Positions 11,593 to 33,806 of a stretch of DNA of 45,976 nt are shown here, piece by piece. The position numbers were made by a program, and so were the translations under genes. The DNA lies in contig DATKCP010000180.1 in assembly GCA_035513115.1 (NCBI GenBank), positions 1 to 45,976 on the forward strand, read 5' to 3'. Each line of letters opens with the position of its first letter. The first letter of the stretch is position 1. The notes beneath the pieces are model-generated. The model did no database searches and was not told where the DNA came from. It was given only the letters and a program-made list of their open reading frames with translations. Origin of the DNA: Candidatus Limnocylindria bacterium (GTDB lineage Bacteria; Chloroflexota; Limnocylindria; P2-11E).

Positions 11593-12072
11593 TTAGTCGT
11601 TCATCTGCAGCGTCGCGGTCGCCCCGACCGTACGCGTGGTCCCGCTGTCGTCGGACTCGAAGTCGAGCACGAGCACGTAAGCGTCCGCCGGCACGCGCGC
11701 TCCTGACTCGTCCTCGCCGTTCCACGTCATGGAGGTCGTCGCGCGCCCTCCAGCCGTGATCCTCGCGGTCGTCACGACGAGACGGCGAACGAGGACCTCG
11801 GACGGCGCGCCGCCTTCGCCCATGCCGGTGGCCATCACCCGCGCCTCGAGCGGGCCGGTGATGGTGCCTCGTGTGGTGATGATCGCCACGTCGATGCGCG
11901 CCGATGCGCCGAGCACATAGTGTGGCTGGACCGCGATCTCGACATGTCCGTTCGGCAGCACCGTCGGCACGACGATGACTCCGGGCGTGGGTGTCCGCTC
12001 GATGGCCACGGGCCGCGGCCCGCACGCCCCCATCAACAGGACCAGCACGAGGGCGCTAGCGGGCCGCCACAC
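11593..12072 (-). CDS. lipoprotein of unknown function (beta-rich, Ig-like)
   Basis: Signal MWRPASALVLVLLMGAC. High GC3. The C-terminal part (MTWNGEDESGARVPADAYVLVLDFES) resembles FlgD-Ig-type folds. Confidence 0.7.
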   Translation of the reverse strand: MWRPASALVLVLLMGACGPRPVAIERTPTPGVIVVPTVLPNGHVEIAVQPHYVLGASARIDVAIITTRGTITGPLEARVMATGMGEGGAPSEVLVRRLVVTTARITAGGRATTSMTWNGEDESGARVPADAYVLVLDFESDDSGTTRTVGATATLQMND

Positions 12073-12886: not shown

Positions 12887-13661
12887 GGTGCTCGTCGGCG
12901 ATGTGCTGCGGACCACCCGGTCGGTGGCCGCCATAGGTGCGGCGAAGGATCGCGTCGTCACGCAGGATCGACGCGTTCCCGTCAGCGACGATCCCGCCAT
13001 TCATGCAGAGCACGCGTGGGAAGTGCGCCATGACACCCGCGAGGTCGTGGGTCGCCACGAGGACGGTCCGGCCGTGGCTGGCGAGATCGCCGAGGAGCGA
13101 CATGAGCTGCTCCTCCGTCGCCGGGTCGACGCCCGTCGCGGGCTCGTCGAGCAGGAGAAGCTCGGGGTCGGCCGCGAGTGTTCGCGCGAGCAGGACGCGC
13201 TGACGCTGCCCGCCGGAGAGCGCGTCGATCGGTCGGCGCGCGAGGTCGGCGACCTGCACTCGTCCCAGGGCGGCGGCCACGGCCGACCGATCCGCCGCTG
13301 AGGGTCCGCGTCCCGGCGTCGCGTGCGTGACGCGACCCATCAGTACGACGTCCTCGACGCGGAGCGGGTAATCCCAGTGCACCTGCTCGGCCTGCGGCAG
13401 GTACGCCAGACGGCGCGCGCTCGCGCCCGGTTCCGACCCGAACACGCCGACGCTGCCGTCGTACGGCCGCAACAGACCGACGATGACCTTCAGCAGCGTC
13501 GACTTCCCGGCGCCATTCGCTCCGACCAGCGCGATGAGCTCACCACGTCGAACCGTGAGATCGACGTTTTCGATGACCGGCCGTCGGTCGTAGCCTGCGC
13601 TGACGCCGCGCATCTCGATGACGGCGGGCTCCCTCACGGGCAGCGACGATACGCGAGCCAC
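12879..13661 (-). CDS. metal ABC transporter ATP-binding protein
   Basis: Walker A GANGAGKST, signature LSGGQRQR, Walker B LLLLDEP, H-loop ATHD. Confidence 0.95.
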   Translation of the reverse strand: MARVSSLPVREPAVIEMRGVSAGYDRRPVIENVDLTVRRGELIALVGANGAGKSTLLKVIVGLLRPYDGSVGVFGSEPGASARRLAYLPQAEQVHWDYPLRVEDVVLMGRVTHATPGRGPSAADRSAVAAALGRVQVADLARRPIDALSGGQRQRVLLARTLAADPELLLLDEPATGVDPATEEQLMSLLGDLASHGRTVLVATHDLAGVMAHFPRVLCMNGGIVADGNASILRDDAILRRTYGGHRPGGPQHIADEHHA

Positions 13662-13669
13662 CGCTCGTG

Positions 13670-14530
13670 CTACTTCAGTGCGGCGACGATCTTGTCGACG
13701 GCGACCCGCATCAGACCGATGTACGAGTCCGCGGGCCGCTCGAGCAGACTGTCGGTCGGCAGGTCCGTGACGACCTTCGCACCCGTCTCCTTCGCCACCG
13801 TCTCGGCAAGCTGTGACGAGCCGCCGGCCTCCGAGAAGATCGCCGGAACCTTCGCGGCCCTCACCTTCTCGACGAGCCCCGCGAGCTCGCCGGCTGACGG
13901 AGGCTTTCCGGGCTCCGGCTCCGCGAAGCCGACGATCTCGAATCCGAAGGCTTCGGCTAGGTACGGGAACGCGTCATGTGAGGTCACCAGCTTGCGACGG
14001 TCCGCCGGGATCGTCGCGACCTTCGCCTGGAGCTCCGACTCGAGACTGACCAGCTGGTCCGTGTACGCCTTCGCGCGCGACGTGTAGGCGTCGCGTTCCT
14101 GCGGATCGAGCGCGATGAGCGCGTCCCTGATCGCCTCCACGTACCCGCGCGCGAGCGCTGGATCGAACCACATGTGCGGGTTCCCGTCGATGTCGGCCAG
14201 ACCATCCGTGACGACGACGACCGGCGTTCCGCTCTTCGCGTTGCGGAGGAGCGGCTCGACCCAAACATCGAGGTCGAGGCCGTTCGTGACGATCAGCCGC
14301 GCATCGGACACTCTTCGCGCGTCGTCCGGTCGTGGCTCGTACTCCTCGACGTGGCCGCCGGCGGGCACGATCGATCCGACCGTCATACGGTCGCCCGCGA
14401 CCTGTTTCGTCATGTCCGCGAGGATCGTGGTCGTGGCGAGGACCTGCGGGCCGCCGCCCCCGACGAACCCGCATCCGGCGAGTGGCATCGCCAGGAACGC
14501 GGCCAGCATCACGACCATGAGACTGCGCAT
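13670..14530 (-). CDS. metal ABC transporter substrate-binding lipoprotein (ZnuA/TroA/MntC family)
   Basis: Signal MRSLMVVMLAAFLAMPLAGC. Also ATTTILADMTKQVAGD, HVEEYEP, NPHMWFDP, VTSHDAFPYLAEAFGF. GGGAG lies 7 nt upstream of ATG 14530. Confidence 0.9.
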   Translation of the reverse strand: MRSLMVVMLAAFLAMPLAGCGFVGGGGPQVLATTTILADMTKQVAGDRMTVGSIVPAGGHVEEYEPRPDDARRVSDARLIVTNGLDLDVWVEPLLRNAKSGTPVVVVTDGLADIDGNPHMWFDPALARGYVEAIRDALIALDPQERDAYTSRAKAYTDQLVSLESELQAKVATIPADRRKLVTSHDAFPYLAEAFGFEIVGFAEPEPGKPPSAGELAGLVEKVRAAKVPAIFSEAGGSSQLAETVAKETGAKVVTDLPTDSLLERPADSYIGLMRVAVDKIVAALK

Positions 14531-14556
14531 GAAACAACTCCCGTAGCGAGAACGAG

Positions 14557-14590
14557 TCTCAATGAAGTGTTGAGAATGATACTCGATATG
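14557..14590. promoter_or_regulatory. candidate Fur/Zur-family operator in the divergent SBP/fur intergenic region
   Basis: Inverted repeat TCTCAA-N7-TTGAGA (14557-14575). Overlapping it, gagaatgatactcgatatg (14572-14590) matches the classical 19-bp Fur box GATAATGATAATCATTATC at 14 of 19 positions by manual count. Confidence 0.45.
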
Positions 14591-14616
14591 TCGTGAGCGC
14601 GCGCTATGCTGTCCAG

Positions 14617-15063
14617 ATGCCACGAACGGCCTCGCGAACGGCTCTGGCCAAGCGGATCACCTCGCGCGGGCGCCGACTCACCAAGCAGCGGGTCATCGTC
14701 GCTCAGGCGCTCGCGACGGAGCGCCAGGCCGTTTCAGCGCAGGAGCTCCACGAGCGCCTGCACCGTGGACATCCGCGCCTCGGCCTGGCCACGGTGTACC
14801 GCGCCCTCGAAGCGCAGGTCGAGGCCGGGATGGCGACCAGGCTCGAACGGCCGGGTCACGTGTCCGCGTACGTGGCCTGCGTATCCGAGCACCACCATCA
14901 CCTGGTGTGCACGAGCTGCCAGCGCGTGGATGACGTGGACGAGACGATCCTCCGCCCGGTCCTGCGCGGCATCCGGGAACGCCACGACTTCCAGGTCGAC
15001 CACGAGCGCCTGGACTTCTACGGCCTCTGCGCGCGCTGCCGCCGGGAGCGGGCCGCGCGCTAG
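14617..15063 (+). CDS. Fur-family metalloregulator (Zur/Fur-like)
   Basis: LTKQRVIVAQAL...SAQELHERL...LATVYRALE, HHHHLVCTSC..., and C-terminal CARC. TATGCT + 6 nt + ATG suggests a leaderless transcript. Confidence 0.9.
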   Translation: MPRTASRTALAKRITSRGRRLTKQRVIVAQALATERQAVSAQELHERLHRGHPRLGLATVYRALEAQVEAGMATRLERPGHVSAYVACVSEHHHHLVCTSCQRVDDVDETILRPVLRGIRERHDFQVDHERLDFYGLCARCRRERAAR

Positions 15064-15091
15064 ACGAGCCGCGCGCTAGACGAGCCGGGCG

Positions 15092-16195
15092 TTAGGTCGG
15101 ACGCCGGCGCGCGAAGAGGACGGCGACCGCGGTCGTGACGGGCACGCACAGCACCAGGCCGATGCTCGCGGCGAGCACGGCGAGGATCGACTCCACGATC
15201 TCTTCGCTGTTGAGCGCGACCGCGAGCGGCTGGTAGCCGAGCGAGAGCAGGAGCACGAGCGGCAGGGCGCCGCCGAAGTAGGCAAGGGCGAGCGTGTTGA
15301 CGAGCGACCCGATGTGGTCGTGCCCGACATTGAGGGCCGAGCGGTAGAGCTGCGCCGGTCCGAGTGTCGGGTCCACGGCCGCGAGCTCCATCGTGGCCGA
15401 CGCCTGGCCGACGCACATGTCCACCAGGGCGCCGAGCGAGCCGACGATGACGCCAGCGAGCACCAGCCGCGGCATGTTGATGCGGCCGTCGGTCCCAATG
15501 GCGAGGAAGATCTGGTCCTCGGAGCCGAGCCCGGTGAGGCGCAGCGACGCGACGCCCACCACGGCGACCACGCAGATGATCACCAGCCCAACGAGCGTGC
15601 CGGCCAGCGCCGCCAGACTCTTGCGGTTCGCGCCGTGGACCACGAACACCGAGACGGTCACGACGCCCACCGCGCCGACGAGCGTCGCGAGGAGTGGATC
15701 GCCGCCGCGCTGCAGCGCGGGAACGATCGCCAGAAGGAACACCGCGATGCTGGCTGCGAGCCCCGCGAGCGCGGCAAGCCCCTTGAGCCTCGCCACGGCG
15801 AGCAGCGCGACGAAGAGCACGATCGCAAGTGGCGCGAGCCCGGGGAGACGGACGATCTCCTGGATCGCGTAGCGGCGCTCGCCGCCCTCCCGGCTCTCGC
15901 TCACGAGGACGCGGTCGCCGGCGCTCAGAAAGCCGTTCGGATCCAGCGCCCGCCGTCCGCCCCACTCGACCGTGACGATCTCCCCGCGATAGAGCCCGGT
16001 GTCGAGCTGCAGCTCGAGGCGCTGGAAAGGCTGCCGCATGCCGGTCGGGGCTGGGTTCCGGTCACCGGTCTCGATCACGCGCACGACGTGCGCGTCGAGG
16101 ACGTCGATCCCCAGCCCCCGGCTCCAGTCCCCGCAGGCCGTCAGCGCGAGCGCCGCGACCAGGCCGAGTCGGAGCGCCACGGACACAGGCGTCAC
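15092..16195 (-). CDS. YibE/F-family integral membrane protein
   Basis: An N-terminal extracytoplasmic domain (VVRVIETG...YRGEIVTVEWGG) is followed by about 6-7 TM helices (LVGAVGVVTVSVFVVHG..., ALVDMCVGQASATMEL, GHDHIGSLVNTLALAYFGGALP). The track ORF is N-terminally over-extended; start is taken as GTG 16195. Confidence 0.85.
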   Translation of the reverse strand: MTPVSVALRLGLVAALALTACGDWSRGLGIDVLDAHVVRVIETGDRNPAPTGMRQPFQRLELQLDTGLYRGEIVTVEWGGRRALDPNGFLSAGDRVLVSESREGGERRYAIQEIVRLPGLAPLAIVLFVALLAVARLKGLAALAGLAASIAVFLLAIVPALQRGGDPLLATLVGAVGVVTVSVFVVHGANRKSLAALAGTLVGLVIICVVAVVGVASLRLTGLGSEDQIFLAIGTDGRINMPRLVLAGVIVGSLGALVDMCVGQASATMELAAVDPTLGPAQLYRSALNVGHDHIGSLVNTLALAYFGGALPLVLLLSLGYQPLAVALNSEEIVESILAVLAASIGLVLCVPVTTAVAVLFARRRPT

Positions 16196-16203
16196 CCGGG
16201 CCT

Positions 16204-17121
16204 CTAGCCCTCTCCCCCGAAGATCAGCTGCTGGAGATCGGGCAGCGCGGTCCCGAGACCCATGATGAAGAACGTGCCGATGACGAGGCTCGCCGTGCCC
16301 GCGAACGCTCCGACGATGACGTAGAGCGTCCGCATGCGCTGTGCTCCGATGAAGCCGCTCGCGCTCACGACCGCGACCAGCGTGTTCGAGATGAGCAGCC
16401 CGGTGACGAACGCCAGGAGTATGACGATCCCCGTGGTACCCGTCACCCCTGCGATGCCCGCGAGGAGCAGCGCCTGTGACCCCGTCTCGGCGCCGATGCC
16501 GTGGATCAGCCCCACCCCGAACGCGGTGCGGGGTCCGTACTGCGTCGAGTGCGCCGACGGCCGGTGCTCGTGCCCATGGATGCGCGCCTGCAGCGCACCC
16601 CACGCGTTGCGCGCGAGATCGAATACCAGCATCCAGCGGCTGCGCAGCCGGAATTCGCCCTTGCCACGGAGGTACTGCACGACCGAATAGATCACCCAGA
16701 CGCCGAGAAGCACCAGCGTCACGCCGACGACCTTCTCGAGGATCGGGTCCAGCCACTCGGGCAGGACCGCGCCGAGCGTCAACGCGAGCACTCCGAGGAC
16801 CACGACGACCAACGCGTGTCCGAGCGCGTACAGCGACGCGAGACCGATCGCGTGCCGCTGCTCGTGCGCGAAACGCGACTCGCCGAACGCGTGCATCGTC
16901 CCCGGTCCGCTCGGCGCGTGATCGTGCGCGTGCCCGCGCATTTCGCCCGCGTCGTGGCCATGTGGTGTCACAGGCGACGCGGCCGGCACGTCCACCTCCG
17001 CATGCCCTGCGCTCGTCGTGCTGGTGATGTCCGTGATCGCCGCGATGTGATCCCAGTCGAATCCGTGCCGGAACCCGAGCGCGGTCATACCCAGGAGCAG
17101 TACGACGAGGCTGAGGTCCAC
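16204..17121 (-). CDS. NiCoT/NicO-superfamily nickel/cobalt-type transporter with a His-rich loop
   Basis: The signature-like motif FRHGFDWDHIAAITD matches the NiCoT RHA.DADHI motif. His-rich segment: HAEVD...HGHDAGEMRGHAHDHAP...HAFGESRFAHEQRH. A second half has LIHGIGAETG. Confidence 0.8.
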   Translation of the reverse strand: MDLSLVVLLLGMTALGFRHGFDWDHIAAITDITSTTSAGHAEVDVPAASPVTPHGHDAGEMRGHAHDHAPSGPGTMHAFGESRFAHEQRHAIGLASLYALGHALVVVVLGVLALTLGAVLPEWLDPILEKVVGVTLVLLGVWVIYSVVQYLRGKGEFRLRSRWMLVFDLARNAWGALQARIHGHEHRPSAHSTQYGPRTAFGVGLIHGIGAETGSQALLLAGIAGVTGTTGIVILLAFVTGLLISNTLVAVVSASGFIGAQRMRTLYVIVGAFAGTASLVIGTFFIMGLGTALPDLQQLIFGGEG

Positions 17122-17151
17122 GGACCGCAGCCTACCGAGCGAGCGTGCTTA

Positions 17152-17211
17152 TCGCAAGGTGTCGCAATAGTGTGTTCTTGCAACACGCTCGCGTTTGCGC
17201 GACGCTTGCGA
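17152..17211. promoter_or_regulatory. array of TCGCAA / TTGC(A/G)(A/C) hexamers between the NiCoT gene and the second fur gene (candidate operator)
   Basis: TCGCAA at 17152 and 17162 (10-bp phasing). The inverse-oriented hexamers are TTGCAA at 17178, TTGCGC at 17195 and TTGCGA at 17206. GTGTCGCAA-N11-TTGCAACAC is an imperfect inverted repeat. Confidence 0.35.
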
Positions 17212-17212
17212 C

Positions 17213-17641
17213 ATGGGTACCGAGATCGACGAGCGCGTGCGGGCGGGCGGGAAGCGGATGACCGTCCAACGCCGCCTGGTGCTGGAGGCGCTGCGGCGCG
17301 CGCGCCATCACGTGACCGCCGACAGCATCGTGACCCGCATCCGCGCGCGTCACCCGCAGATCGACCCTTCCACGGTCTACCGGAACCTCGAGGCGCTCGA
17401 GGAGCTGGGGTACGTGACGCACACGCACTTCGACGACCGCGTCACGCGCTGGCACCGCGCCGACGCGCAGCGCCACGGCCATCTCGTTTGCCGCAGATGC
17501 GGCTCCGAGCAGGAGCTTCCGATCGACCTGCTCGAGCCGCTCGCACGCCGGCTGCGGGATGACCACGGCTTTCGAGCCGATCTGGCGCACTCGGCGATCG
17601 TCGGTATCTGCAAGGCCTGCTCGAACGTATCCTCTATGTAG
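17213..17641 (+). CDS. second Fur-family metalloregulator (possibly Nur/other metal-specific)
   Basis: MTVQRRLVLEAL...HVTADSIVTRI...PSTVYRNLEALEELGYV, HGHLVCRRCG and CKAC. Confidence 0.9.
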   Translation: MGTEIDERVRAGGKRMTVQRRLVLEALRRARHHVTADSIVTRIRARHPQIDPSTVYRNLEALEELGYVTHTHFDDRVTRWHRADAQRHGHLVCRRCGSEQELPIDLLEPLARRLRDDHGFRADLAHSAIVGICKACSNVSSM

Positions 17642-17643
17642 AT

Positions 17644-18009
17644 ATGCGCCTGATCGCGATCGTCGTCTTCGCACTCGCCGCCACCGGCGCCACGCTCGCT
17701 GGTTCCGGTCTGGTGGTCGCCCCGCACATCGACCCGCCCGGAACTCCGAAGTACCACGACCACGTCCTGGCGGCGTACCGCCTGCCGATCTTCCTCGCGG
17801 GCGTTGAGGCGCGCTTCGACCCGCGGCAGGGCGTGCTCACCCAGAAGCACCTCGACGCCGCGACCTTCGCGCTCGCACTCGCGCTTCTGGTCTTCGCCTG
17901 GCCGCGCCTGCCGCGGCCGACTCGGCGGCCCACCTGGCGGCTGGCCAGAGCGGACATCGCGCGGGCGCAGTGGCGCTCGCCGCTGATCCTCGGACCGCCG
18001 CGCCGCTGA
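17644..18009 (+). CDS. small membrane protein, unknown function
   Basis: The ATG lies 2 nt after the fur stop. High GC3. There are two hydrophobic segments (LIAIVVFALAATGATLAG, ATFALALALLVFAW). Confidence 0.55.
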   Translation: MRLIAIVVFALAATGATLAGSGLVVAPHIDPPGTPKYHDHVLAAYRLPIFLAGVEARFDPRQGVLTQKHLDAATFALALALLVFAWPRLPRPTRRPTWRLARADIARAQWRSPLILGPPRR

Positions 18010-18086
18010 CCCTCCTTCCACCGACAGCCCGGGTGATTTTCGAGAGCCGGGTGACTCACCGGACACAAAAGACCTTGGAGGGTCAC

Positions 18087-18686
18087 ATGACGCGTGTCAC
18101 TTCATTCGCCGCGGCGGCGCTGGTCGTCGCGACGAGTGTCATCGCATTCAGCGGCACCGCGGCGGCGCACGAGCGTCGGACGGTCGGGCCGTACCAGTTC
18201 GTCGTGGGATGGCTCAACGAGCCCGCCTACGTTGGACTCGTGAACAGCCTTGACCTGCGCGTGACCGACACGCGCGTGACTCCCGCGAAGGCCGTCGAGG
18301 GTCTCGACAAGACGCTCACGGTCGAGCTGCAGACCGGCGGACTCGCGCCGCTCCGCCTCACGGTCACCGCGCGCTTCGGAACGCCCGGTGCGTACAACGG
18401 CTACGCCATGCCCACCGCGACCGGCACGTACACCTTCCATATCAAGGGCAAGGTCGAGGATCTCGACGTCGACGAGAAGTTCGAGTCCGGGCCAGGCCGG
18501 TTCGGCGACATCGAACCGACCACCGCGCTCCAGTACCCGAACGAAGTCCCCACCCCGGATGAGCTCGGCACCCGCCTGGGCGACCTGCAGAGCGGCATCG
18601 ATCAGACGCGCATCCTGTCCGCGGCGGCGGTCCTGATCGGTCTCGTCGCCCTGGGCGTCGCATTCATGTTCCGGCGCCGCGCGTAG
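18087..18686 (+). CDS. secreted, C-terminally membrane-anchored protein with a predicted N-terminal His after signal cleavage (YcnI-like role)
   Basis: GGAGGG lies 5 nt upstream of the ATG. Signal ...AFSGTAAA|HERRTVGPY. Beta-rich body, then C-terminal TM ILSAAAVLIGLVALGVAFMFRRRA. It sits directly upstream of CopC-CopD (TAGTG overlap). Confidence 0.8.
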   Translation: MTRVTSFAAAALVVATSVIAFSGTAAAHERRTVGPYQFVVGWLNEPAYVGLVNSLDLRVTDTRVTPAKAVEGLDKTLTVELQTGGLAPLRLTVTARFGTPGAYNGYAMPTATGTYTFHIKGKVEDLDVDEKFESGPGRFGDIEPTTALQYPNEVPTPDELGTRLGDLQSGIDQTRILSAAAVLIGLVALGVAFMFRRRA

Positions 18687-20590
18687 TGCGCGGACCCCTC
18701 ACGGCGCTCGTCGCCGTGTCCGTCCTCATCCTGATGGGCGGCGCGGCGGCGGCGCACGCGAACTACGTCAGGTCGAACCCCGCCTCCGACGCCCTCCTCA
18801 CGAGGGCGCCGACGGAGGTGCGCGTGACGTTCAGCGAGCCGCCGGACGCCCGCGGCAGCGACGTCGCGGTACTCGACGTGAACGGCAGCCGCTTCGACCA
18901 GCGCGACGTGACGCTGGTGAGCGACGAGCCGAACACCCTGCGGGTGTCGCTCGGCGCGCTCGCCGACGGCGGCTACCTTGTGTCCTGGACCGCCCTGTCC
19001 TCCGTCGACGGTCACGTGACGAAGGGCACCTTCGCGTTCGCCGTCAACGCGCCGCTCCCGCCCATCGGGGACATCGGACCGTCGACACCGCCTCCGACGG
19101 CGCTCGAGATCGCCGGCCGCGCGCTCTCGTACGGCGGGATGGCGCTGTTGATCGGCCTCGCGTTCTTCACGATGTTCATCCGCGTCCCGACCGCCGGTGC
19201 GGAGACGCGCCGCGAGCGACATCTGGTCGTCGCCGGTGGCGCGGCCGTTCTGGCAGGCAGCGCGCTGCTGATCCTGGGTCAGGGCACGAACATCCCGGGC
19301 CGGCTACTTGCCCTGCTCGGACTACGCGCGCTCGCGGGCATCGCGGCCCTGGCGTCCCTCGCCGTGCCGGCGCGCCTCCTGCCCGCCGACGCGCGCCGCG
19401 AAGCGATCGCGTTCTTCGGACTGGCCGCCGGACTCACCGCCACGCTGGTGTCGCACGCCGCGGCGAGCGGCGACCTCCGCTACGTGGCACTCGACTATCT
19501 CCATGTCATCGCGATCTCGATCTGGCTCGGTGGCGTCGTGGCGTTCTCGTACGTGGCGATGCCGTCAGCGCGGTCGGAGGACCCGAGCGACCTCGGACGG
19601 ACGGTCTGGCGGTTCTCGCTGACGGCGCTCGTCGCGGTCGCGGTGATCGTCACGACCGGGGCGCTGCAGGCGCTGGACCGTCTGGTGCTCGTCGAGGATC
19701 TCGTTGAGACCCCTTACGGGATCGCGCTGCTCACCAAGATCGTGCTACTCGTCGGACTGCTCGGGCTGGGCGCGCTGAACCTCCTGGTGTGGGGGCCGCG
19801 GCTGCGGCGCGGCCTTCAGGCGAGCGCGCAGCTCTGGCGCGGTGTGCTCGGCGAGACCGCGCTCTTCGCCGGCGTGATCGTGGCCGCGGCCTTCCTCACC
19901 GCACTCGTGCCGCCGGCGCAGGTGAGCGGTGCCGCGTTCGACGAGACCAGGCGCGTGAGCGGCATCCGCATCCAGCTGCTCACGGCGTCCACGCTCCCCG
20001 GACGCAACCGCTTCGTCGTGAGGGCACAGCAGGGACTCACGCCGATCTCGGGCGCGGAGAGGGTCGCGCTGCGTTTCACCATGGTCGAGCACGACATGGG
20101 CGAGCTCGAGCTCATCGCGAGCGAGCGCGCCGCCGGCGAGTACGTCGCCGAAGGCAGCCCGATGGCGATGTTCGGCACGTGGAAGGTCGAGGTGATCACG
20201 CGGCTCGCCGGCCGGCCCGACATCCGCGCGCTGTTCACCGTGCCGGTCTCGGCGCCCGCGGGTCAGGACGCGACGACCAAGGTCATCGCGGTCCCGCCCT
20301 ACCAGCTCATCGTCTTCGCGGAGCCGTTCCAGCCGCAGGCCGGCGCACCCCTCACTATCAATGTCGTCGTGGTCGATCAGCAGGGCGACCCGGTGACGGG
20401 TAGGAACGTGCGGGCGACGTTCAGCGGGCCCGGCACCCAGGCGCCGCTCGACGGCGTCGAGAACGCCGCCGAGCTCGGCCCGGGCCGCTACCGCTTCACG
20501 TTGCCGGGACTGGACGCGGGCTCGTGGAGGATCACGATCGGCGTGGACGGCGCGGGCAGCGGCGTGTACGAGCTCGACGTGAGCAGGTGA
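18686..20590 (+). CDS. CopC-CopD fusion copper resistance/uptake protein (YcnJ-like) with C-terminal Ig-like domains
   Basis: CopC domain: AAAAHANYVRSNPASDALL...VRVTFSEP...GGYLVSWTALSSVDGHVTKGTFAFAV. Then about 8 TM helices (CopD). Then soluble beta domains (FVVRAQQG...FTMVEHDMGELEL...GTWKVEV; INVVVVDQQGDPVTG...GRYRFTLPGL). Confidence 0.9.
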   Translation: MRGPLTALVAVSVLILMGGAAAAHANYVRSNPASDALLTRAPTEVRVTFSEPPDARGSDVAVLDVNGSRFDQRDVTLVSDEPNTLRVSLGALADGGYLVSWTALSSVDGHVTKGTFAFAVNAPLPPIGDIGPSTPPPTALEIAGRALSYGGMALLIGLAFFTMFIRVPTAGAETRRERHLVVAGGAAVLAGSALLILGQGTNIPGRLLALLGLRALAGIAALASLAVPARLLPADARREAIAFFGLAAGLTATLVSHAAASGDLRYVALDYLHVIAISIWLGGVVAFSYVAMPSARSEDPSDLGRTVWRFSLTALVAVAVIVTTGALQALDRLVLVEDLVETPYGIALLTKIVLLVGLLGLGALNLLVWGPRLRRGLQASAQLWRGVLGETALFAGVIVAAAFLTALVPPAQVSGAAFDETRRVSGIRIQLLTASTLPGRNRFVVRAQQGLTPISGAERVALRFTMVEHDMGELELIASERAAGEYVAEGSPMAMFGTWKVEVITRLAGRPDIRALFTVPVSAPAGQDATTKVIAVPPYQLIVFAEPFQPQAGAPLTINVVVVDQQGDPVTGRNVRATFSGPGTQAPLDGVENAAELGPGRYRFTLPGLDAGSWRITIGVDGAGSGVYELDVSR

Positions 20591-20721
20591 CGATCCTCTC
20601 GGTCCTGCCACACGGCGCAAGCGGCTGGCTCGACGAGATCATCTCCCTCGGGCTTCCGCTGGCGGTGCTCATCGTGCTGTACGTGTGGTCGTCGCGTAAG
20701 CCGAAAGAGAAACGCAAGTGA
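20587..20721 (+). CDS. 44-aa single-TM peptide, unknown function
   Basis: VTILSVLPHGASGWLDEIISLGLPLAVLIVLYVWSSRKPKEKRK. Its GTG overlaps the copCD stop (GTGA), and its own stop overlaps the next GTG (GTGA). Confidence 0.5.
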   Translation: MTILSVLPHGASGWLDEIISLGLPLAVLIVLYVWSSRKPKEKRK

Positions 20722-21257
20722 CCTTCCCCATCTCACGCCAGGGGCTGCAGGACATCGCGCTCTTCCTCATCGCGGGGGCGGTGATCTTCGTGCTCCTCGC
20801 GCTCGTGACGCGCTACCGCGGCGGCGACTGGCGGCGTTTCGCGATCAGCGCCGGCGCGCTCGGCGTCCTCGTCATCGTGTCGTATGCGCTCGCGTTCACG
20901 GTCGCCCCGAACATTCCCACCCCGCCGGTCCCGTTCACCGCACGGTTCGTGCAGAACCCGACGCCGGACACACCCGAGACGATCGAGCGGGGCCGCGCAA
21001 CGTTCCAGGCGAACTGCGCGATCTGTCACGGATCGCGTGGCCTCGGTGACGGCCCGCAGGCCTTCCTGCTCCAACCCCGCCCCGTGAACCTGCAGCTGCA
21101 CGTGCCGCAGCACGCGGAGGGCGAGGTCTACTACTGGATCGGCGAAGGCGTCGCGGGGACGGGTATGCCGGCCTGGAAGGAGACGCTCGACGAGACGAAG
21201 CGCTGGGAGGTCGTGCGCTACCTTCAGGCACTCGCGTCGGGGAAGGTGGAACGCTGA
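20718..21257 (+). CDS. membrane-anchored mono-haem c-type cytochrome
   Basis: Two N-terminal TM helices, then a class I cytochrome c domain with CAICHG and a distal GMPAW Met. Confidence 0.85.
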   Translation: MTFPISRQGLQDIALFLIAGAVIFVLLALVTRYRGGDWRRFAISAGALGVLVIVSYALAFTVAPNIPTPPVPFTARFVQNPTPDTPETIERGRATFQANCAICHGSRGLGDGPQAFLLQPRPVNLQLHVPQHAEGEVYYWIGEGVAGTGMPAWKETLDETKRWEVVRYLQALASGKVER

Positions 21258-21297
21258 CCCGAGCCATCGGGAGTTCGATTCGACGACGTCAGCGGGA

Positions 21298-21852
21298 TCA
21301 GTGCTGCTCCTCGTCATCTCCGTCCATGGTGTGTCCCGGCGACGACGGCGCCGCGGTCATCAACGCGGGTGTCGGGCCCACGGTCCGCACCGGATCCGAC
21401 CCGGTACCTGCCTCCACCAGGATCGTGCCCTTCATCCCGCTCTCGTAGTGCCCCACCACGAAGCAGCCGAATTCGAACCGACCGACCTCCTGCGGCACCA
21501 TGAGCGTGAGGCTCGCCGCCGCGCGGGGAGCCAGCCGTAGCCCCTCGCCGACGTGACCCGCGGCGTGGTTCCCGCTCGTGTTGTCGGTCATTGCCAGCGC
21601 GAGCCAGTCGTACATGAAGCCCTTGCCCACCATGGCCTCGCGACCAGCCATGAACTCGTGCTCCTGGCTCCCGACGTTCCGGAAGCTCAGCGTGATCCGC
21701 TCGCCGGGCGTGACGCTGATCGTCGCGGGCGAGAATGCGAAGTCGCTCATGTCGATGCGGACGACGCGTCCGGCGTCGTTCGGCAGCGGCGCGTAACCGG
21801 ATCCGCACCCTGTGAGTAGTAGCGCCAACACGATCGCCACCGGGATGCGCAT
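21298..21852 (-). CDS. cupredoxin-fold (blue-copper-like) lipoprotein
   Basis: Signal MRIPVAIVLALLLTGCGS. Type-1 copper ligand pattern: ...QEHEF... and FGCFVVGHYESGM (Cys, His, Met). GGAGGTG lies 6 nt upstream of ATG 21852. Acidic/His tail: HTMDGDDEEQH. Confidence 0.85.
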   Translation of the reverse strand: MRIPVAIVLALLLTGCGSGYAPLPNDAGRVVRIDMSDFAFSPATISVTPGERITLSFRNVGSQEHEFMAGREAMVGKGFMYDWLALAMTDNTSGNHAAGHVGEGLRLAPRAAASLTLMVPQEVGRFEFGCFVVGHYESGMKGTILVEAGTGSDPVRTVGPTPALMTAAPSSPGHTMDGDDEEQH

Positions 21853-21873
21853 CGGGTCACCTCCACCGAGCCG

Positions 21874-21892
21874 TTGCCCTTTAGAAGGGCAA
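21874..21892. promoter_or_regulatory. perfect 8-3-8 inverted repeat TTGCCCTT-TAG-AAGGGCAA upstream of the cupredoxin gene
   Basis: Read directly from the sequence, 22 nt upstream of ATG 21852. It is followed by the direct repeat CGTAGCGCT-ctg-CGTAGCGCT (about 21895-21915). Confidence 0.4.
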
Positions 21893-21986
21893 ATCGTAGC
21901 GCTCTGCGTAGCGCTGACCGTCGAGCCGCAGCCCTGTCGGCGGGGTTCACCAGGGCTCACTAGTCTCCTCGTGTGGAGGCGAGGGA

Positions 21987-25452: not shown

Positions 25453-25697
25453 GCCGGAAGACTACGTGAGCCAGACGTGTCGGTCCTCGCGCTGGTCGCA
25501 TACACTGGCGCCACAACAAAACGGCGCGCGCGACGACCAATGCGTTCGTGAGGAACGCGCTCGCGTACCGACCGCGCTTCGGCGACACGGAGACGTGGAC
25601 CAAAGAGCGTTTGGGACGAGGGTGAGCAACTAGCGCGTGACTCCGGGAGGGGTCCGCGAACGGGTCGGGCGGCGTGTGCGCTCCATAGGAGAATCCC

Positions 25698-27404
25698 TTG
25701 CCCGACGTCGCTCTCCTCATTGACTGGGAGAACGTCTACTACACGCTGCGGCAGCACACCACCGGACCGCTGCCGTCATCACTCGCGATCCTGCAGGCCA
25801 TCCTCAAAAAGGCAGCCGAGTTCGGCCCCGTGCGCGTGAAGCTCGCGATCTTCGGACAGGAGGTCGCGATGCAGGACGAGACGCTGCTCATGGCGCTCGA
25901 GTTCACCGGCATCGAGCCGATCCCGGTGGCCCAACGCATGAGCGGCCGGCTGCTCAAGGGCCGGTCCGACGCGGTCCTGATCACGCGCGCGATGAAGCTC
26001 CTGTACAAGGATCGGCCGGAGATCGACGTCTGGTTCATCGTCTCCGGCGACCGCGATCTCAATGCCCTGTGCAAGGCGCTGAAGGACGAGGACAAGAGCG
26101 TCTATCTCGTCGCGGGCGATCTCTCGCTCGCCAACGAGCTCCGCGAATCACCGCATCTGCGCGACGACGTCTTCCTGCTCGAGGACCTCATACCGGAGGC
26201 GCGCTGGACGCGGGGCGGCCTGCGGGCCGACGACACCCAGCACGGCAAAGAGGACGGCCACCGGGGGGCTGCGCCCCCCGAGAGCCCCCCGCGCGGCCGG
26301 ACTCGTCGCGGTGGACGTGGCGGAGGCGGGCGTGGCCTGCGTACGCCGCCGGTCGTCCCGGCCGTCGTGCCGACCGGAGCGCCGGAGTCCGACAAGGAGC
26401 AGCGACGGCTCGCGGTGCTGCTCCTCGACCAGCTCGTCGCCATCCATGCGTCGGCGATGGCGCGCGGCGACTTCGTCCGATCTGTCGTGCCGCTCTCCGA
26501 GAAGGAAGCCTCGAGCGTGCTCGAGGAGCGGATCGACGCGGCGATCGAGCAGCACCACATCGTGGCGAAGTTCGAGGGCCGCGCCCGCGCGAAGGCGAAG
26601 CAGCTCCTGTCGCCAAACATCAGCTCCCCGCTCGTGGCGGAGACGTACTTCCACTTCGTGCGCCTGCTCCGTCGCATCAACACCGTCACCAAGGACACCA
26701 AGCGCGTGCCGGTGGTCGAAGCCGTGCTCGATCCGCTCTCGCGCGCGGACCAGCCCGGCGGTATCGCTCGCGGCCGCACCCAGCGGCGCATCCTCCTCGA
26801 GACCCTGTTCAACATCGCCGAGGAACGCGGCGCCATCCAGAGCGAGGCGGTCCAGCGTGACGGCCGGGAGATCACGATGTGCTGGCTCGTTGACGACCAT
26901 CCGCTCGTCGTGTACGCGCGGCAGCCAGCCGCGGCCATCGCGCATCTCTTCAACTTCGTCAGCACGACGCGCGCGCACGGCGACCGCGCCGATTGGGTCA
27001 ACGCCGCGCTGTTCGCCGAGCTTCTCTCGCGAGTCGAGGGGGACGCGCTCGAGTCGAACATCCGCAGCGCCGTCGAGCGCGGGATCATGAAGCCGGAGGA
27101 CCACGGGAAGAAGGCCGGCTTCGTCGTCTCCCGCGATCATCCCGAGGTGCGCACGGTCCTGGGCGAGTTCGGCGGTCTGAACGGCGACGCGGTGGAGCGA
27201 GCGGTCGCGACTGCCACCGCGCCGGAGACCGAGGATGAGGACGAGGACGAGTCCGCTCCCACGGCGGCCACGGCGGCGGCGACCGAACCGCCGGCCGTGC
27301 CACGAAAGCGCACCCGCCGCGGGTCACGTGGTGGTCGCCGGCGCGGTGGACGCGGGCGCAAGAACGCGACCGCGGCCGGTACTGGAACGGAAGCCGCGGA
27401 CTGA
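25698..27404 (+). CDS. NYN/LabA-like (PIN-fold nuclease) domain protein with two RGG boxes and a ~270-aa unknown domain
   Basis: The N-terminal domain (ALLIDWENVYY..., RSDAVLITRAMKLL, WFIVSGDRDLNALCKALK, VYLVAGD) fits the NYN/DUF88 pattern. RGG boxes: RGRTRRGGRGGGGRGLR and [27 protein letters not shown] lies 4 nt upstream of the TTG start. Confidence 0.85.
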   Translation: MPDVALLIDWENVYYTLRQHTTGPLPSSLAILQAILKKAAEFGPVRVKLAIFGQEVAMQDETLLMALEFTGIEPIPVAQRMSGRLLKGRSDAVLITRAMKLLYKDRPEIDVWFIVSGDRDLNALCKALKDEDKSVYLVAGDLSLANELRESPHLRDDVFLLEDLIPEARWTRGGLRADDTQHGKEDGHRGAAPPESPPRGRTRRGGRGGGGRGLRTPPVVPAVVPTGAPESDKEQRRLAVLLLDQLVAIHASAMARGDFVRSVVPLSEKEASSVLEERIDAAIEQHHIVAKFEGRARAKAKQLLSPNISSPLVAETYFHFVRLLRRINTVTKDTKRVPVVEAVLDPLSRADQPGGIARGRTQRRILLETLFNIAEERGAIQSEAVQRDGREITMCWLVDDHPLVVYARQPAAAIAHLFNFVSTTRAHGDRADWVNAALFAELLSRVEGDALESNIRSAVERGIMKPEDHGKKAGFVVSRDHPEVRTVLGEFGGLNGDAVERAVATATAPETEDEDEDESAPTAATAAATEPPAVPRKRTRRGSRGGRRRGGRGRKNATAAGTGTEAAD

Positions 27405-27796
27405 TGGCGCGGGTCCTCATCGTGGAAGACGACGCCGCCAGCATGGACCTCGCGCTCCGCATCGTGCGGCTGGCGCGCCACGAGCCCATCACGACGATGG
27501 ACGGCGAGACCGCGTTCGCCGTCGCGCAGGCAACGCATCCAGAGCTCATCCTGCTCGACCTGCACATCCCGAGATTGGACGGTTATGCGTTCGCGCGCGC
27601 GGTGCGCAAGGAGCCCTGGGGCAAGGACATGCCCATGGTCGCCGTGTCGGCGTCCGCCACGCCGGTGGATCGCGAGCATGCGATCGCGGCGGGATGCGAC
27701 GGATTCCTCGCGAAGCCGTACTACCCCGAGCAGCTGCGGGCCGTGATCGACCAGTACCTCCCCGCGAGCGCAAAGCGCACACAAAAAGACCGCTAA
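27404..27796 (+). CDS. single-domain (CheY-like) response regulator
   Basis: VLIVEDD, LILLDLHIPRLDG, MVAVSASA, GFLAKP. The ATG overlaps the TGA of the NYN gene by 1 nt. Confidence 0.9.
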   Translation: MARVLIVEDDAASMDLALRIVRLARHEPITTMDGETAFAVAQATHPELILLDLHIPRLDGYAFARAVRKEPWGKDMPMVAVSASATPVDREHAIAAGCDGFLAKPYYPEQLRAVIDQYLPASAKRTQKDR

Positions 27797-27938
27797 CCGA
27801 CAAAGTCCACTTTTCGTGCTCGACCCTTCGCGGGGGGAAGGCCCTTGGTCTTCACCGATACGCGATCGTCGCATTAAGCGAGTACGGCTGGCGTCAACTC
27901 AGCCGCCTCATGGCATGCTGCGCGCAACGACTGGGGTC

Positions 27939-28337
27939 ATGGGGTCGCCCAGGAACAGACGCACGCGAGTCGTCGTGGTCGTCGAGGATGACCGGCAGAT
28001 CGGCGAGCTGCTGGCGGGCGTCATCAATGACGAGGCGGGCTACCGCGCCATCCACCTGACCCAGCCAGGCGATGCACTGCGCACGCTGGAGCAGCTGAAG
28101 CCGGACCTGTTGGTGCTCGACGTCAGCCTACCCGAGATGAGCGGTCTCGAGCTCTACGATCGCCTGCAGCAGGACGAGCGCATGCGGAACGTGCCGGTGA
28201 TATTCGAGACCGCCGTGGCGCGCGAGCACGGAGCGGAGTTTCGGAAGCGCGGGATCACCAAGGTCCTGCAGAAGCCCTTCGACCTGAACGATCTCATCGC
28301 GGGTGTCAAGGAGCTTGCCCCACCGATCGCGGCCTAA
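27939..28337 (+). CDS. single-domain (CheY-like) response regulator
   Basis: VVVVVEDD, LLVLDVSLPEMSG, VIFETA, VLQKPF. ATG 27939 was chosen; ATG 27915 is an alternative. Confidence 0.85.
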   Translation: MGSPRNRRTRVVVVVEDDRQIGELLAGVINDEAGYRAIHLTQPGDALRTLEQLKPDLLVLDVSLPEMSGLELYDRLQQDERMRNVPVIFETAVAREHGAEFRKRGITKVLQKPFDLNDLIAGVKELAPPIAA

Positions 28338-29659
28338 TCCGCGGCGCCGTCCTCGACGCGGGTGCGCGACTTCGCGACGCGGCCGATCTGCTCTGCCGTC
28401 GCCTGGGAGCTCGCGACGAGCGTCCGGAAGGCATCTTCCTCGAGCGCCATGACCTCGAGCGAGGTCCTCGCCCGCACCGTGGCGTTCCTCGTCTGTCCGC
28501 TGAGGATGCCGACCTCGCCGAAGTAGTCGCCGGGACGCAGCGTGTTGATCGTTCGTTCCGCGCCGTTCGGGTCCCGCTGAGTGACGACCGCCTCCCCCTT
28601 CGCGATCACGAAGAAGCGATCGGATCGGTCGCCCTCGCGGATGACGACCGATCCGGGCGGGAACGTGAGGATCCGCATCCGGCTTGCGGCCTTGGCGACG
28701 ACTTCGCGCGGCGCCTCTGGGAACGCCCGCTCGGCATGCTTGAGCTCCTCGATGTAACGCTCGGCGTGGAGCACGGCCGTCGTGGCGTCGCCGACCGCCG
28801 TCGTGATCTGCTTCGCGAGCTGCTGCCGCGTGTCGCCCGCGGCGTACACGCCCGGGATGCTCGTCTGCATGTATTGGTCGGTGATGAGATAGCCGCTCTC
28901 GTCATGATCGATGTGATCGGCGAACAGCTGCCTCGCGACCGGTTTGAAGCCAACGAACACGAAAACGCCCTCGACGGGGATGCGCTCGACCTCACCGTCA
29001 CGCGCGACGTCGATCCACTTCACGGCCGTCCCGTCACCGCCGATCTCCTTCACGGTCGCGGGCGTGACCGTATGGACCATGTCCTTCGCAAGCAGGCGAT
29101 CCTGCAGGATGGCCTGCGCGCGGAAGTCGCTCCGCCGGTGCACGACGTGCAGCTTTTTCGCGAACCGCGTGAGGAACAGTCCCTCCTGGAAGGCGCTGTC
29201 GCCTCCGCCGACGACCGCGAGGTCGTTGCCCTTGAAGAAGGCGCCGTCACAGACCGCGCAGTACGAGACTCCGCGGCCGTGGTACTCCGCCTCGCCGGGA
29301 ACGCCGAGCTTGGTGGGCTCCCCGCCAACGGTCACGATCACCGCGTAGGCGCGGTGGATGGTGCCGTCCACGAGCTCGACGACCTTGCGGTCGCCCTCGA
29401 CGCGGATCTGCTTCACCGGCGCGTAGGTCTCCACCTTGAGACCGAATTTGCGCGCATGGTCCGCCATCTTCTGGGCGAGCTCGGCCCCGGTCACCGACTC
29501 GAACCCGGGATAGTCCTCGATGAGATCGGTGTTCAGGATCTCGCCGCCGGTGTCCTTGCCCTCGAGCAGGACCGCGCTCATGTTCGCGCGCGCGGCGTAG
29601 AGTCCGGCGGTGAGCCCGGCGGGGCCACCCCCGATGATGATGAGGTCGTAGTCGGCCAA
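28334..29659 (-). CDS. trxB: thioredoxin reductase fused to a C-terminal cyclic-nucleotide-binding domain
   Basis: ADYDLIIIGGGPAGLTAGLYAAR, redox CAVCDG, VVGGGDSAFQEG and GVYAAGD. Then a cNMP-binding-like domain: FPPGSVVIREGDRSDRFFVIAKGEAVV...LRPGDYFGEVGILSGQTRNATVRA. The TTG start at 29659 is preceded by AAAGGA; the longer track ORF adds an implausible leader. Confidence 0.9.
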   Translation of the reverse strand: MADYDLIIIGGGPAGLTAGLYAARANMSAVLLEGKDTGGEILNTDLIEDYPGFESVTGAELAQKMADHARKFGLKVETYAPVKQIRVEGDRKVVELVDGTIHRAYAVIVTVGGEPTKLGVPGEAEYHGRGVSYCAVCDGAFFKGNDLAVVGGGDSAFQEGLFLTRFAKKLHVVHRRSDFRAQAILQDRLLAKDMVHTVTPATVKEIGGDGTAVKWIDVARDGEVERIPVEGVFVFVGFKPVARQLFADHIDHDESGYLITDQYMQTSIPGVYAAGDTRQQLAKQITTAVGDATTAVLHAERYIEELKHAERAFPEAPREVVAKAASRMRILTFPPGSVVIREGDRSDRFFVIAKGEAVVTQRDPNGAERTINTLRPGDYFGEVGILSGQTRNATVRARTSLEVMALEEDAFRTLVASSQATAEQIGRVAKSRTRVEDGAAD

Positions 29660-29711
29660 GAAGGGTCCTTTCTGGAAGCGGTTTCCACAGACTAGAACAG
29701 CGGAGCATTCC

Positions 29712-30335
29712 ATCGGCATTCCTGCCACAGAGCGCTGGCTTGCCCTGGGTGACTCGTTCACGATCGGAACGGGCACCACGCCGGAGGATTCGTTCCCGGC
29801 GGCACTCACGCGCCTCTGGTCCGGCAGCGGGCGGGCCGTCGAGCTGCGGAACCCGGCGGCGAACGGCTACCGGACCGATGACCTCATCGCGGAGGAGCTA
29901 CCGCTGGTCGCGCGGTTCCATCCGACGCTCGTGACGGTCCTGATCGGGGCCAACGACATCGTCGCCGCCTCGACCGACGAGCGCTATCGCGCGCAGCTGC
30001 GGCGCATCCACTCGAGCATCAGGACGGACGCCCCCGCGGCGGCGCTCTACGCGCTGCCTCAGCCCGACTGGTCACTGGCGCCCGTGGCGACGTCGTTCGG
30101 CACGGTGACCGCGATCGCGGCGCGCATCGCCCGCTTCAACGTCATCGCGCGCGAAGAGGTGGAGCTGGCCGGCGGTACGTTTGTGGATATCTTCCCGCTG
30201 ATGCGCGAGCAGGCCGTGCGCGGCATGGTCGCGCCCGACGGTCTGCACCCGTCGGCGGCGGCGTATGCCGAGTGGGCCGCTGTGCTGCGAGAGCTGCTCC
30301 AGCCCGGGTACCTCAGGCCGGCTTCGTCACCATGA
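29712..30335 (+). CDS. SGNH/GDSL-family hydrolase; start codon non-canonical or uncertain
   Basis: Manual translation of the frame upstream of track ORF 29931..30335 gives ...ERWLALGDSFTIGTG (block I GDS), ...NPAANGYRTDD (block II), LIGANDIV (block III) and DGLHPS (block V). No ATG, GTG or TTG lies between the in-frame stop at 29649 and the GDS motif. ATC at 29712 sits 6 nt after GGAG. Confidence 0.7.
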   Translation: MGIPATERWLALGDSFTIGTGTTPEDSFPAALTRLWSGSGRAVELRNPAANGYRTDDLIAEELPLVARFHPTLVTVLIGANDIVAASTDERYRAQLRRIHSSIRTDAPAAALYALPQPDWSLAPVATSFGTVTAIAARIARFNVIAREEVELAGGTFVDIFPLMREQAVRGMVAPDGLHPSAAAYAEWAAVLRELLQPGYLRPASSP

Positions 30336-33419: not shown

Positions 33420-33806
33420 CTACGCCATCACCTCGCTCTTCGCGGCGCCCATCAGCCGGTCCGCGCGCGCGATGAGCTCGTCCACGTCGAAGGGCTTCGC
33501 GAGGACCTCATGCACTCCGGTCGATGCGTTCGCCGACTCCGCGCGGTCAGGGAGGCTGGTGAGAAAGAGCACCGGCACGCCCTGCCAGTGCTGATCGCTG
33601 CGCAGCAGATCGAACACGTCGAGTCCGTTCAGGCCCGGCAGCTGGACATCTAGGATGAGCAGATCCGGGCGACGGGCGGTGATCCAATCCATCACCAGAG
33701 CACCGTTCGCGACGGCGTCGACGTCGACATCAAGTCGCTCGGTCAGGGCCTGGCGCAGCACGTCCTCGATGTCCGGCTCGTCCTCCGCAATGAGGACGCG
33801 TCTCAC
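33420..33806 (-). CDS. single-domain (CheY-like) response regulator
   Basis: VLIAEDE, LLILDVQLPGLNG, VLFLTS, VLAKPF. Confidence 0.9.
   Translation of the reverse strand: MRRVLIAEDEPDIEDVLRQALTERLDVDVDAVANGALVMDWITARRPDLLILDVQLPGLNGLDVFDLLRSDQHWQGVPVLFLTSLPDRAESANASTGVHEVLAKPFDVDELIARADRLMGAAKSEVMA

Follow-up and report, generated by a model that had tools for sequence, protein, structure and literature searches.

On a contig of 45,976 nt from a Candidatus Limnocylindria bacterium (GenBank DATKCP010000180.1, assembly GCA_035513115.1; the whole stretch is hereafter called the window), a gene for a 568-aa protein with an N-terminal NYN domain is joined by a stop/start overlap to the gene of a single-domain response-regulator receiver, here named CheY1, and a second receiver, CheY2, follows. 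Does this locus encode an RNA-cleavage or RNA-binding module under phosphorylation control, as was suggested when the sequence was first read by itself (hereafter the original prediction), or is the NYN protein a unit in its own right? Limnocylindria are abundant, uncultured Chloroflexota of soil and freshwater. We found that the NYN gene is a core, apparently single-copy gene of this class, that its product joins an intact NYN active site to three winged-helix domains and two RGG boxes, that a structured leader precedes the gene, and that the receivers lie outside the conserved NYN unit.

Domain architecture of the NYN protein

The gene for the NYN/triple winged-helix/RGG protein is an open reading frame (ORF) at 25698-27404 (+) that starts with TTG. 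Its GC content at third codon positions (GC3) is 0.88, in line with the remaining genes of the window, which has 70% GC, and this frame-specific GC3 selects the + strand ORF, marking the antisense ORFs that overlap it as high-GC artefacts. A Shine-Dalgarno (SD) sequence, GGAG (25688-25691, +), lies 6 nt before the TTG; GGAGAA is kept in >90% of the leaders described below, and both the SD and a TTG, GTG or ATG start are conserved among family members.

The N-terminal domain (aa 1-167; 25698-26198, +) is a PIN-like nuclease domain of the LabA/COG1432 type, recognised by Pfam, by fold and by invariant residues. PF01936 matches aa 4-150 (E=6.9e-14, 53 bits against a cut-off of 24.2) and also matches 34 of 34 full-length homologues. 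With the full-length AlphaFold2 (AF2) model, in which the predicted local distance difference test score (pLDDT) of the NYN domain is about 73-86, the top three Foldseek matches were 2qip (VPA0982; E=4.4e-4, TMt 0.62, 21% identity) and then the mouse/human MARF1 NYN structures 5yaa (TMt 0.67) and 6fdl (TMt 0.71). A single-sequence search for relatives of solved structure gave a marginal 2qip match alone, and a match of the family profile to ribosomal protein S3 was spurious, caused by the basic tail. The original prediction had named an NYN/LabA-type domain here, and the Pfam and fold matches bear this out, with the motifs that it quoted in place (LIDWENVYY at aa 7-15, DAVLITRAM at 91-99 and IVSGDRDLNAL at 114-124).

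Catalysis by MARF1 needs four aspartates, located at the end of beta1, the end of beta2, the N-terminus of alpha3 and the end of beta4, and its NYN domain also has a conserved Asn and Ser (PMC6217404). The signature that we tested comprised four acidic residues, an Asn 3 positions after the first Asp and a Ser 2 before the last. D9, N12, E55, D91, S116 and D118, plus D120, are found at the expected secondary-structure positions; the first six correspond to MARF1 D178, N181, D215, D246, S270 and D272, and all NYN catalytic positions are invariant in a 25-sequence alignment. Because the catalytic residues are all present and invariant, the protein does not lack an active site, a defect that the original prediction had named as fatal to its own proposal. 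NYN domains with such a signature are Mn/Mg-dependent single-stranded RNases, namely MARF1 (PMC6217404) and the CRISPR-associated NYN protein of Bacteroides fragilis (bioRxiv 10.1101/2024.04.08.588522). The latter, a prokaryotic protein, is an Mn2+-dependent, sequence-nonspecific endonuclease of single-stranded RNA, which supports the chemistry predicted here; it belongs to a type III CRISPR locus, whereas the window gene belongs to the syntenic core and stands outside any defence context. From these comparisons we predict that the 568-aa protein is a metal-dependent endoribonuclease.

The following ~270 aa, for which the original prediction suggested a test for OST-HTH/LOTUS or winged-helix folds, form three tandem winged-helix (WH) domains in an AF2 model with pLDDT 90.6 and a predicted template-modelling score (pTM) of 0.90. 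All are encoded on the + strand: WH1 at 26382-26615 (aa 229-306), WH2 at 26628-26888 (aa 311-397) and WH3 at 26901-27158 (aa 402-487), and each unit has a helix-helix-helix-beta-hairpin topology. This confident model covers just the middle region and was built on an alignment of greater diversity; it supersedes a first full-length model, from a shallow alignment, that was poor in this region (pLDDT 57.8). WH2 is the most conserved of the three, with 89% identity across the class and 70% in a divergent clade, and is rich in invariant arginines (GIARGRTQRR before helix 3), while WH3 is the most variable, with 68% and 40%, respectively.

The winged-helix suggestion was thus upheld by the model, and membership of the OST-HTH/LOTUS family was rejected on Pfam scans: the middle region has no Pfam match, OST-HTH (PF12872) gave none at E<=10, and 0 of 35 family members match the OST-HTH/LOTUS profile at E<=1. 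Structure comparison, with the whole triple array as the query, placed no LOTUS structure among the top 50 PDB Foldseek matches. The matches obtained were generic multi-winged-helix proteins with template-modelling (TM) scores of 0.2-0.3, and the structural neighbours include Rpc82/RPC62, TFIIIC tauB, SarS, Dcc1, STK19, ESCRT-II, ScpB, MAGE and YceH-like proteins. The PDB and viral Foldseek libraries held no specific structural homologue of the array, just generic multi-WH or helix-turn-helix matches, and the top match, GPAT1 (8e4y; E=4.5e-4, TMq 0.29, root-mean-square deviation 12.8), looks like a chance helical match. A HMMER scan of 1.84 billion representatives found no relative of the middle domain outside the family, returning 29 clusters that are all the same family or its fragments.

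Two disordered segments flank the winged helices, a linker (aa 168-228; 26199-26381, +; pLDDT <50) and a tail predicted to be disordered (aa 488-568; 27159-27401, +). RGG box 1 (aa 199-215; 26292-26342, +) lies within the linker and RGG box 2 (aa 535-555; 27300-27362, +) within the tail, and both are conserved in the family. The acidic run ETEDEDEDE (aa 510-518; 27225-27251, +), which like the two boxes was correctly located by the original prediction, occupies a variable segment of the tail; its sequence is not conserved and sits in a variable, generally acidic linker. Given the conservation of the RGG boxes, an RNA-directed function is the best reading of the protein. We also observed three conserved short motifs in the disordered segments at which partner proteins might dock, as they do on degradosome scaffolds: ARWTRGGLRxDDTQxGKE (26199-26252, +) and PPVVPAVVPTG (26346-26378, +), both invariant within the variable linker, and G(T/S)EAAD at the extreme C-terminus (27384-27401, +).

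A structured leader upstream of the NYN gene

Roughly 190 nt upstream of the NYN start are conserved across the whole class. Most of this sequence is a structured 5′ leader of ~180 nt (25516-25697, +), conserved in at least 49 distinct Limnocylindria. A -10-like box, TACACT (25501-25506, +; family consensus TAnAnT), precedes the invariant leader start by ~10 nt, at a position that alignments show to be conserved across clades, and it is followed by the invariant AACGGCGCGCG block and then by further conserved blocks down to the SD. The NYN gene probably has its own promoter, for which the TACACT box is the putative -10 element, although a simple sigma-70 scan called no full promoter there. Promoter and terminator scans around the genes called no + strand site, including in the 142-bp spacer between CheY1 and CheY2.

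RNAalifold predicts a long-range helix with compensatory changes in the leader, and independent minimum free energy folds of leaders from different clades converge on one architecture, a three-way junction closed by a helix of ~23 bp. The 5′ strand of this closing helix (25523-25550, +) includes the invariant GGCGCGCG block and the 3′ strand (25655-25682, +) ends 5 nt before the SD; its 23 pairs are 92.6% paired, and 10 of them show double-sided changes (e.g. CG to UA or the reverse, in 14 sequences). Enclosed by it are a variable inner hairpin region (25564-25618, +; 12 pairs, 10 with double-sided changes) and the conserved hairpin GACUCC-GGGA-GGGGUC (25639-25654, +; 6 pairs, 94.3% paired, 3 with double-sided changes), which adjoins the 3′ strand of the closing helix and is deleted in one clade. 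GNRA/UUCG-type loops are visible in single-sequence folds of the inner region, where the subclade of the window has extra small hairpins. In the divergent clade, too, the leader folds with a closing helix of this design.

Covariation was assessed on 49 distinct sequences and 41 modelled pairs, with slid partners and 500 shuffles as controls. We found 90.1% of leader cells to be paired, as against 36-43% in the slid controls, a measure that is inflated because the structure was derived from the same sequences; double-sided changes are less affected by this, and 23 of the 41 pairs change on both sides. The covariation score was 0.293, compared with 0.06-0.10 in the slid controls, and none of the 500 shuffles reached the observed values. 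The frequent G-U pairs indicate that the + strand is the one that folds. A candidate extra helix, ACGCGCU/AGCGCGU, is compatible with the fold and is invariant, so that covariation says nothing on it either way.

A covariance model of the leader gave one match per locus, of 28-160 bits and always ending at the NYN start, including at loci left out of model building, and nothing else in 945 kb scored >21.5 bits. Rfam 15 had no match at the gathering threshold, the best permissive scores being those of STAXI (13.9 bits, E=0.7) and PART1_3 (10.1 bits). The leader thus represents a previously undescribed RNA motif that belongs to the NYN gene alone. The mRNA leaders of RNase E, RNase III and PNPase serve to control these enzymes, and the E. 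coli rne, rnc and pnp genes resemble the present one in having a long, conserved, gene-specific, structured 5′ untranslated region directly upstream of the ribosome-binding site of an RNase gene. The window leader differs in showing no sequence or Rfam relationship to theirs, and feedback is proposed here by analogy: the leader would most likely serve control by the NYN protein itself, via binding or cleavage.

Distribution of the gene and its neighbouring receivers

The family comprises ~300 homologues, all from soil or freshwater metagenomes or from metagenome-assembled genomes (MAGs) labelled Candidatus Limnocylindria or Chloroflexota, with a few filed in evidently mis-binned MAGs. Databases name its members just 'NYN domain-containing' or 'LabA/DUF88', and a literature search for Limnocylindria together with NYN found nothing. 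Across the class, identity to the window protein is 90% in the NYN domain and 89% in WH2, falling through 78% in WH1, 68% in WH3 and 62% in the linker to 51% in the tail. TldD, PmbA, TrxR and Dxs in the same loci show 65-84% identity, so the NYN and WH2 modules are more constrained than these housekeeping enzymes.

The gene order is syntenic class-wide, with PmbA-TldD (−), then NYN (+) and, further on, TrxR-cNMP (−), DUF2269, SDR and Dxs. Six contigs carrying this block (L021, L027, L041, L054, L066 and L071) are filed as Bathyarchaeia, Udaeobacter, Acidiferrales, Saccharimonadales or Dormiibacterota, and such odd MAG labels on contigs with the Limnocylindria-specific block probably reflect binning contamination. 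Anti-phage defence was considered as a role and rejected, as the NYN protein has no match in PADLOC-DB and its gene lies in a housekeeping syntenic block. The divergent clade (~60% identity) has another neighbourhood, with Fur/Zip/Znu genes upstream and DUF4395 downstream; there the NYN gene comes directly after the Fur and Zip/Znu genes and is also downstream of a CopCD-cytochrome c gene. The window itself has a metal-homeostasis neighbourhood upstream of the NYN gene (12056-21960), with ZnuA/ABC-3, a CopC-CopD-YtkA fusion and a cupredoxin, and the linkage of metal homeostasis and NYN may be ancestral.

At the 3′ end of the NYN gene, the last base of the TGA (27402-27404) is also the first of the CheY1 ATG (27404-27406; GACTGATGG). 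CheY1 (27404-27796, +; 130 aa) and CheY2 (27939-28337, +; 132 aa, ATG start) are single-domain receivers by PF00072 (E=4e-20 and E=1e-20), separated by a 142-bp spacer (27797-27938, +) whose GC content is 62.0%, as against 69.7% for the window; the overlap, the canonical receiver and the second receiver after a lower-GC spacer are as originally described. Both are of the stand-alone type, without an output domain, and keep D13, D57, T/S87 and K109 in an alignment with E. coli CheY, where D13, D57 and K109-P110 are invariant and position 87 is S or T. Their identity to each other is 23%, at which we rejected an origin by tandem duplication.

If the NYN-CheY pair were a module, its adjacency should be conserved, a check that the original prediction itself had proposed. 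Among 73 informative family loci, 10 have NYN with the overlap-coupled CheY1 and then CheY2 (NYN identity at least 86% in all), one has another two-receiver arrangement (L072), 44 have a CheY2-like receiver alone and 18 have no receiver. The lone CheY2-like receivers begin 76-1816 bp after the NYN stop, with a gene of 1.3-1.8 kb in between at ~19 of the 44 loci (in L001 it encodes an MFS transporter), and in most loci without a receiver NYN is 10-136 bp from the convergent TrxR gene. An adjacent receiver was never seen in the divergent clade. With CheY1 coupled in 10 of 73 loci and no receiver in 18, the gene pair is largely not conserved; the pairing is kept only within the window's subclade, at NYN identities of about 83% or more.

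The two receivers differ in history. CheY2 orthologues (46-82% identity) occur in 55 of the 73 loci at variable distance from NYN, and CheY2 always abuts the convergent TrxR-cNMP gene, with whose stop codon its own overlaps (28334-28337); CheY2 is an old yet dispensable neighbour of the NYN gene. The TrxR-cNMP gene (28334-29809, −), conserved beside the NYN region class-wide, encodes a thioredoxin-reductase-like flavoprotein with a C-terminal cyclic-nucleotide-binding domain. CheY1 is present solely in the window's subclade. In a metagenome search with CheY1 itself as query, every relative of at least 82% identity for which upstream sequence was available sits directly after NYN, and the 1-nt overlap is kept in 52 of 57 CheY1-carrying loci, so that the coupling noted in the original prediction is real without being a defining trait of the family. 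Identity is 88-94% for CheY1 and 72-82% for CheY2 in the same loci, and in three loci (L132-L134) CheY1 stands beside NYN with CheY2 absent.

The nearest CheY1 relatives outside NYN loci, at 68-70% identity, lie beside a HAMP-GAF-HisKA kinase (L139-L142). CheY1 is thus a recent graft behind NYN in one subclade, from the receiver lineage of an ordinary kinase cluster, and the kinase type of L139-L142 is a candidate for its cognate kinase. That cluster (e.g. L140, 3923-8360) also contains a 331-aa membrane protein without a Pfam match and a PBP_like_2 protein, and lies downstream of BatA/VWA-TPR genes.

No cognate kinase was found within the window: Pfam scans of the called ORFs (which did not take in every small ORF) and tblastn with four kinases detected no HisKA or HATPase_c. 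Five receiver proteins in 46 kb without a kinase mean that receiver adjacency is cheap here. Besides CheY1 and CheY2 these are a third stand-alone receiver directly after dxs (33420-33806, −), a REC-GerE (NarL-type) regulator (8482-9129, +) and a 1530-aa ORF (3205-7797, −) of unusual response-regulator architecture, in which an N-terminal receiver is combined with MshEN, FecR, long collagen triple-helix repeats and a phage-baseplate BppL_N motif. A tRNA gene (42227-42297, +) is the sole Rfam match in the window.

Function of the NYN protein

On balance, we lean towards reading the protein as an NYN endoribonuclease to which RNA is bound by the winged-helix array and the RGG boxes, with the leader most likely being its own feedback operator. 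The array and the boxes would recruit RNA and position it for the exposed NYN active site, on the model of the LOTUS winged helices and the NYN domain in MARF1, and the protein would bind or cleave its own leader and thereby set its own level. In one subclade, the CheY1 copy placed behind NYN by the 1-nt overlap would be co-expressed with the RNase and may modulate it; phospho-control by a CheY is possible in that subclade only. Of the RNA-cleavage or RNA-binding module under phospho-control that was originally proposed, the RNA-directed part is therefore retained, in view of the intact NYN domain and the conserved RGG boxes, and the CheY part is not a defining one. The accompanying remark that such an arrangement is not a described paradigm was too strong, because ANTAR response regulators are RNA-binding two-component outputs (PMC3369931) and a genetic and possibly also physical link joins the NYN protein LabA to RpaA, a response regulator (PMC11127020).

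The closest architectural parallel is MARF1, an animal oocyte endoribonuclease with NYN, an RRM and tandem LOTUS/OST-HTH winged helices, which shares with the window protein an N-terminal NYN domain of the same acidic signature followed by several winged-helix domains. The winged helices of MARF1 bind RNA and are required for cleavage (PMC6217404), and the NYN plus winged-helix theme is known both from MARF1 and from bacterial LabA-like NYN proteins (PMC5499597). The differences are considerable: NYN identity to MARF1 is 12-13%, the window family has no RRM, an OST-HTH/LOTUS signal is absent from the winged helices of all 35 members scanned, MARF1 lacks the RGG boxes and the acidic tail, and here the host is bacterial and the family confined to one class. 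LabA/VPA0982 (the NYN.COG1432 cluster, 2qip) is the best structural match and also matches weakly in sequence, with the catalytic residues aligned, but these proteins are single domains of about 160-190 aa, to which the window protein adds ~400 aa with three winged helices, two RGG boxes and short motifs, and the window locus has no circadian-clock context. ANTAR regulators (EutV, AmiR, NasR-type) resemble the proposed subclade arrangement in that two-component signalling can end on RNA (PMC3369931), although in these proteins receiver and RNA-binding domain form one polypeptide, which acts by antitermination, not cleavage. Stand-alone receivers such as CheY, CpdR and DivK bind partner proteins; compared with these and with ANTAR, the receivers in the window are separate genes, optional across the family and without a cognate kinase in the window.

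Several observations weigh against the endoribonuclease reading. None of the three winged helices is detectably a LOTUS domain by sequence, and the more usual ligands of such winged-helix arrays are DNA or proteins (ScpB, ESCRT-II, Dcc1). The second acidic position of the active site is Glu (E55) and not Asp; E55 aligns with an Asp of 2qip (VPA0982) in the weak sequence match mentioned above. Both the nuclease activity and the specificity for RNA over DNA are predicted by homology alone. The SD is not obviously sequestered in the predicted leader fold, and the ligand of the leader could be a metabolite or a different protein. CheY1, finally, is strongly constrained where present (88-94%) and was retained in L132-L134 after the loss of CheY2, which hints at a real functional tie to NYN; since CheY1 is so well conserved there, a tie local to the subclade is possible.

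Such a tie would make CheY1, and perhaps CheY2, a dedicated partner of NYN in the subclade, with the phosphorylated receiver docking on, for example, the variable WH3 or a tail motif and switching RNA cleavage or binding on or off. We regard this as unlikely. The 1-nt overlap implies co-translation and is kept in nearly all CheY1 loci, all the closest CheY1 relatives sit directly after NYN, CheY1 is more conserved than CheY2 and outlasts it in L132-L134, both receivers retain all phospho-acceptor residues, and single-domain receivers act by protein-protein contacts; but the coupling is confined to close relatives (NYN identity about 83% or more), among which synteny extends over the whole region in any case. 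CheY1 is missing from 62 of the 73 loci and every receiver from 18, and the divergent clade never has one, while loci without CheY1 show no change in the NYN, WH and RGG parts or in the leader. The nearest outside relatives of CheY1 sit with a kinase of their own, the five receivers of the window have none there, and no NYN-receiver fusion occurs among ~240 listed homologues. Doubtful to a greater degree is the fuller proposal that the subclade locus is a self-contained RNA-level signalling device, in which an autoregulated RNase is gated by CheY1 that a distant kinase phosphorylates. Were it true, an RNase would here be the output of a two-component system, caught during its assembly from an older, receiver-independent core RNase.

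Control could also run in the opposite direction. Knockout of LabA raises the abundance and phosphorylation of RpaA in Synechococcus, and suppressor screens suggest a direct interaction (PMC11127020), so that the NYN protein might act on signalling, for instance by reducing the amounts or activity of the receivers next to it, or of their mRNAs, in the way that RpaA is repressed by LabA. Its NYN domain does belong to the same LabA/COG1432 group, whose cluster is represented by the best fold match, 2qip (PMC5499597), and a receiver lies downstream of NYN in 55 of the 73 loci. The receivers are nonetheless optional across the family, LabA is small and single-domain with no WH or RGG modules, and the window has no Kai-type clock context; we consider this the least probable of the alternatives, and very improbable. 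Hardly more probable is a scaffold that is not an RNase at all, with a structural or DNA-nicking NYN domain and a winged-helix array that, like those of ScpB, Dcc1 or ESCRT-II, works in chromosome organisation or complex assembly by binding DNA or proteins. Nucleoid proteins can carry RGG or arginine-rich tails, and the sole structural neighbours of the middle region are multi-WH proteins that bind DNA or proteins, though at TM scores of 0.2-0.3 only. PIN-like domains include DNA nucleases such as FEN (PMC5499597), but every characterised NYN domain of the PF01936 type cuts RNA (PMC6217404; bioRxiv 10.1101/2024.04.08.588522). The invariant, full catalytic signature argues for an active enzyme, and a long, gene-specific, structured mRNA leader fits an RNA-binding product better than a scaffold.

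The endoribonuclease reading extends the pairing of NYN with winged helices, known from MARF1, to a bacterial triple-WH and RGG architecture. New here are the combination of three WH domains, two RGG boxes and conserved short motifs in a protein restricted to a single uncultured class, the leader with its structure, and a documented recent receiver graft by stop/start overlap. The distribution of the receivers illustrates how a stand-alone receiver is grafted onto an older gene by such an overlap, and teaches that in a receiver-rich genome adjacency needs phyletic testing before it is read as a conserved module. The short motifs in the disordered regions recall degradosome scaffolds, and the leader offers an experimental handle on the RNA specificity of the protein. 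For Limnocylindria, the NYN/WH/RGG protein is among the most conserved lineage-specific genes, its NYN and WH2 modules exceeding even Dxs in conservation, and because of this it probably has a central part in RNA processing or RNA decay, for which other bacteria rely on different enzymes.

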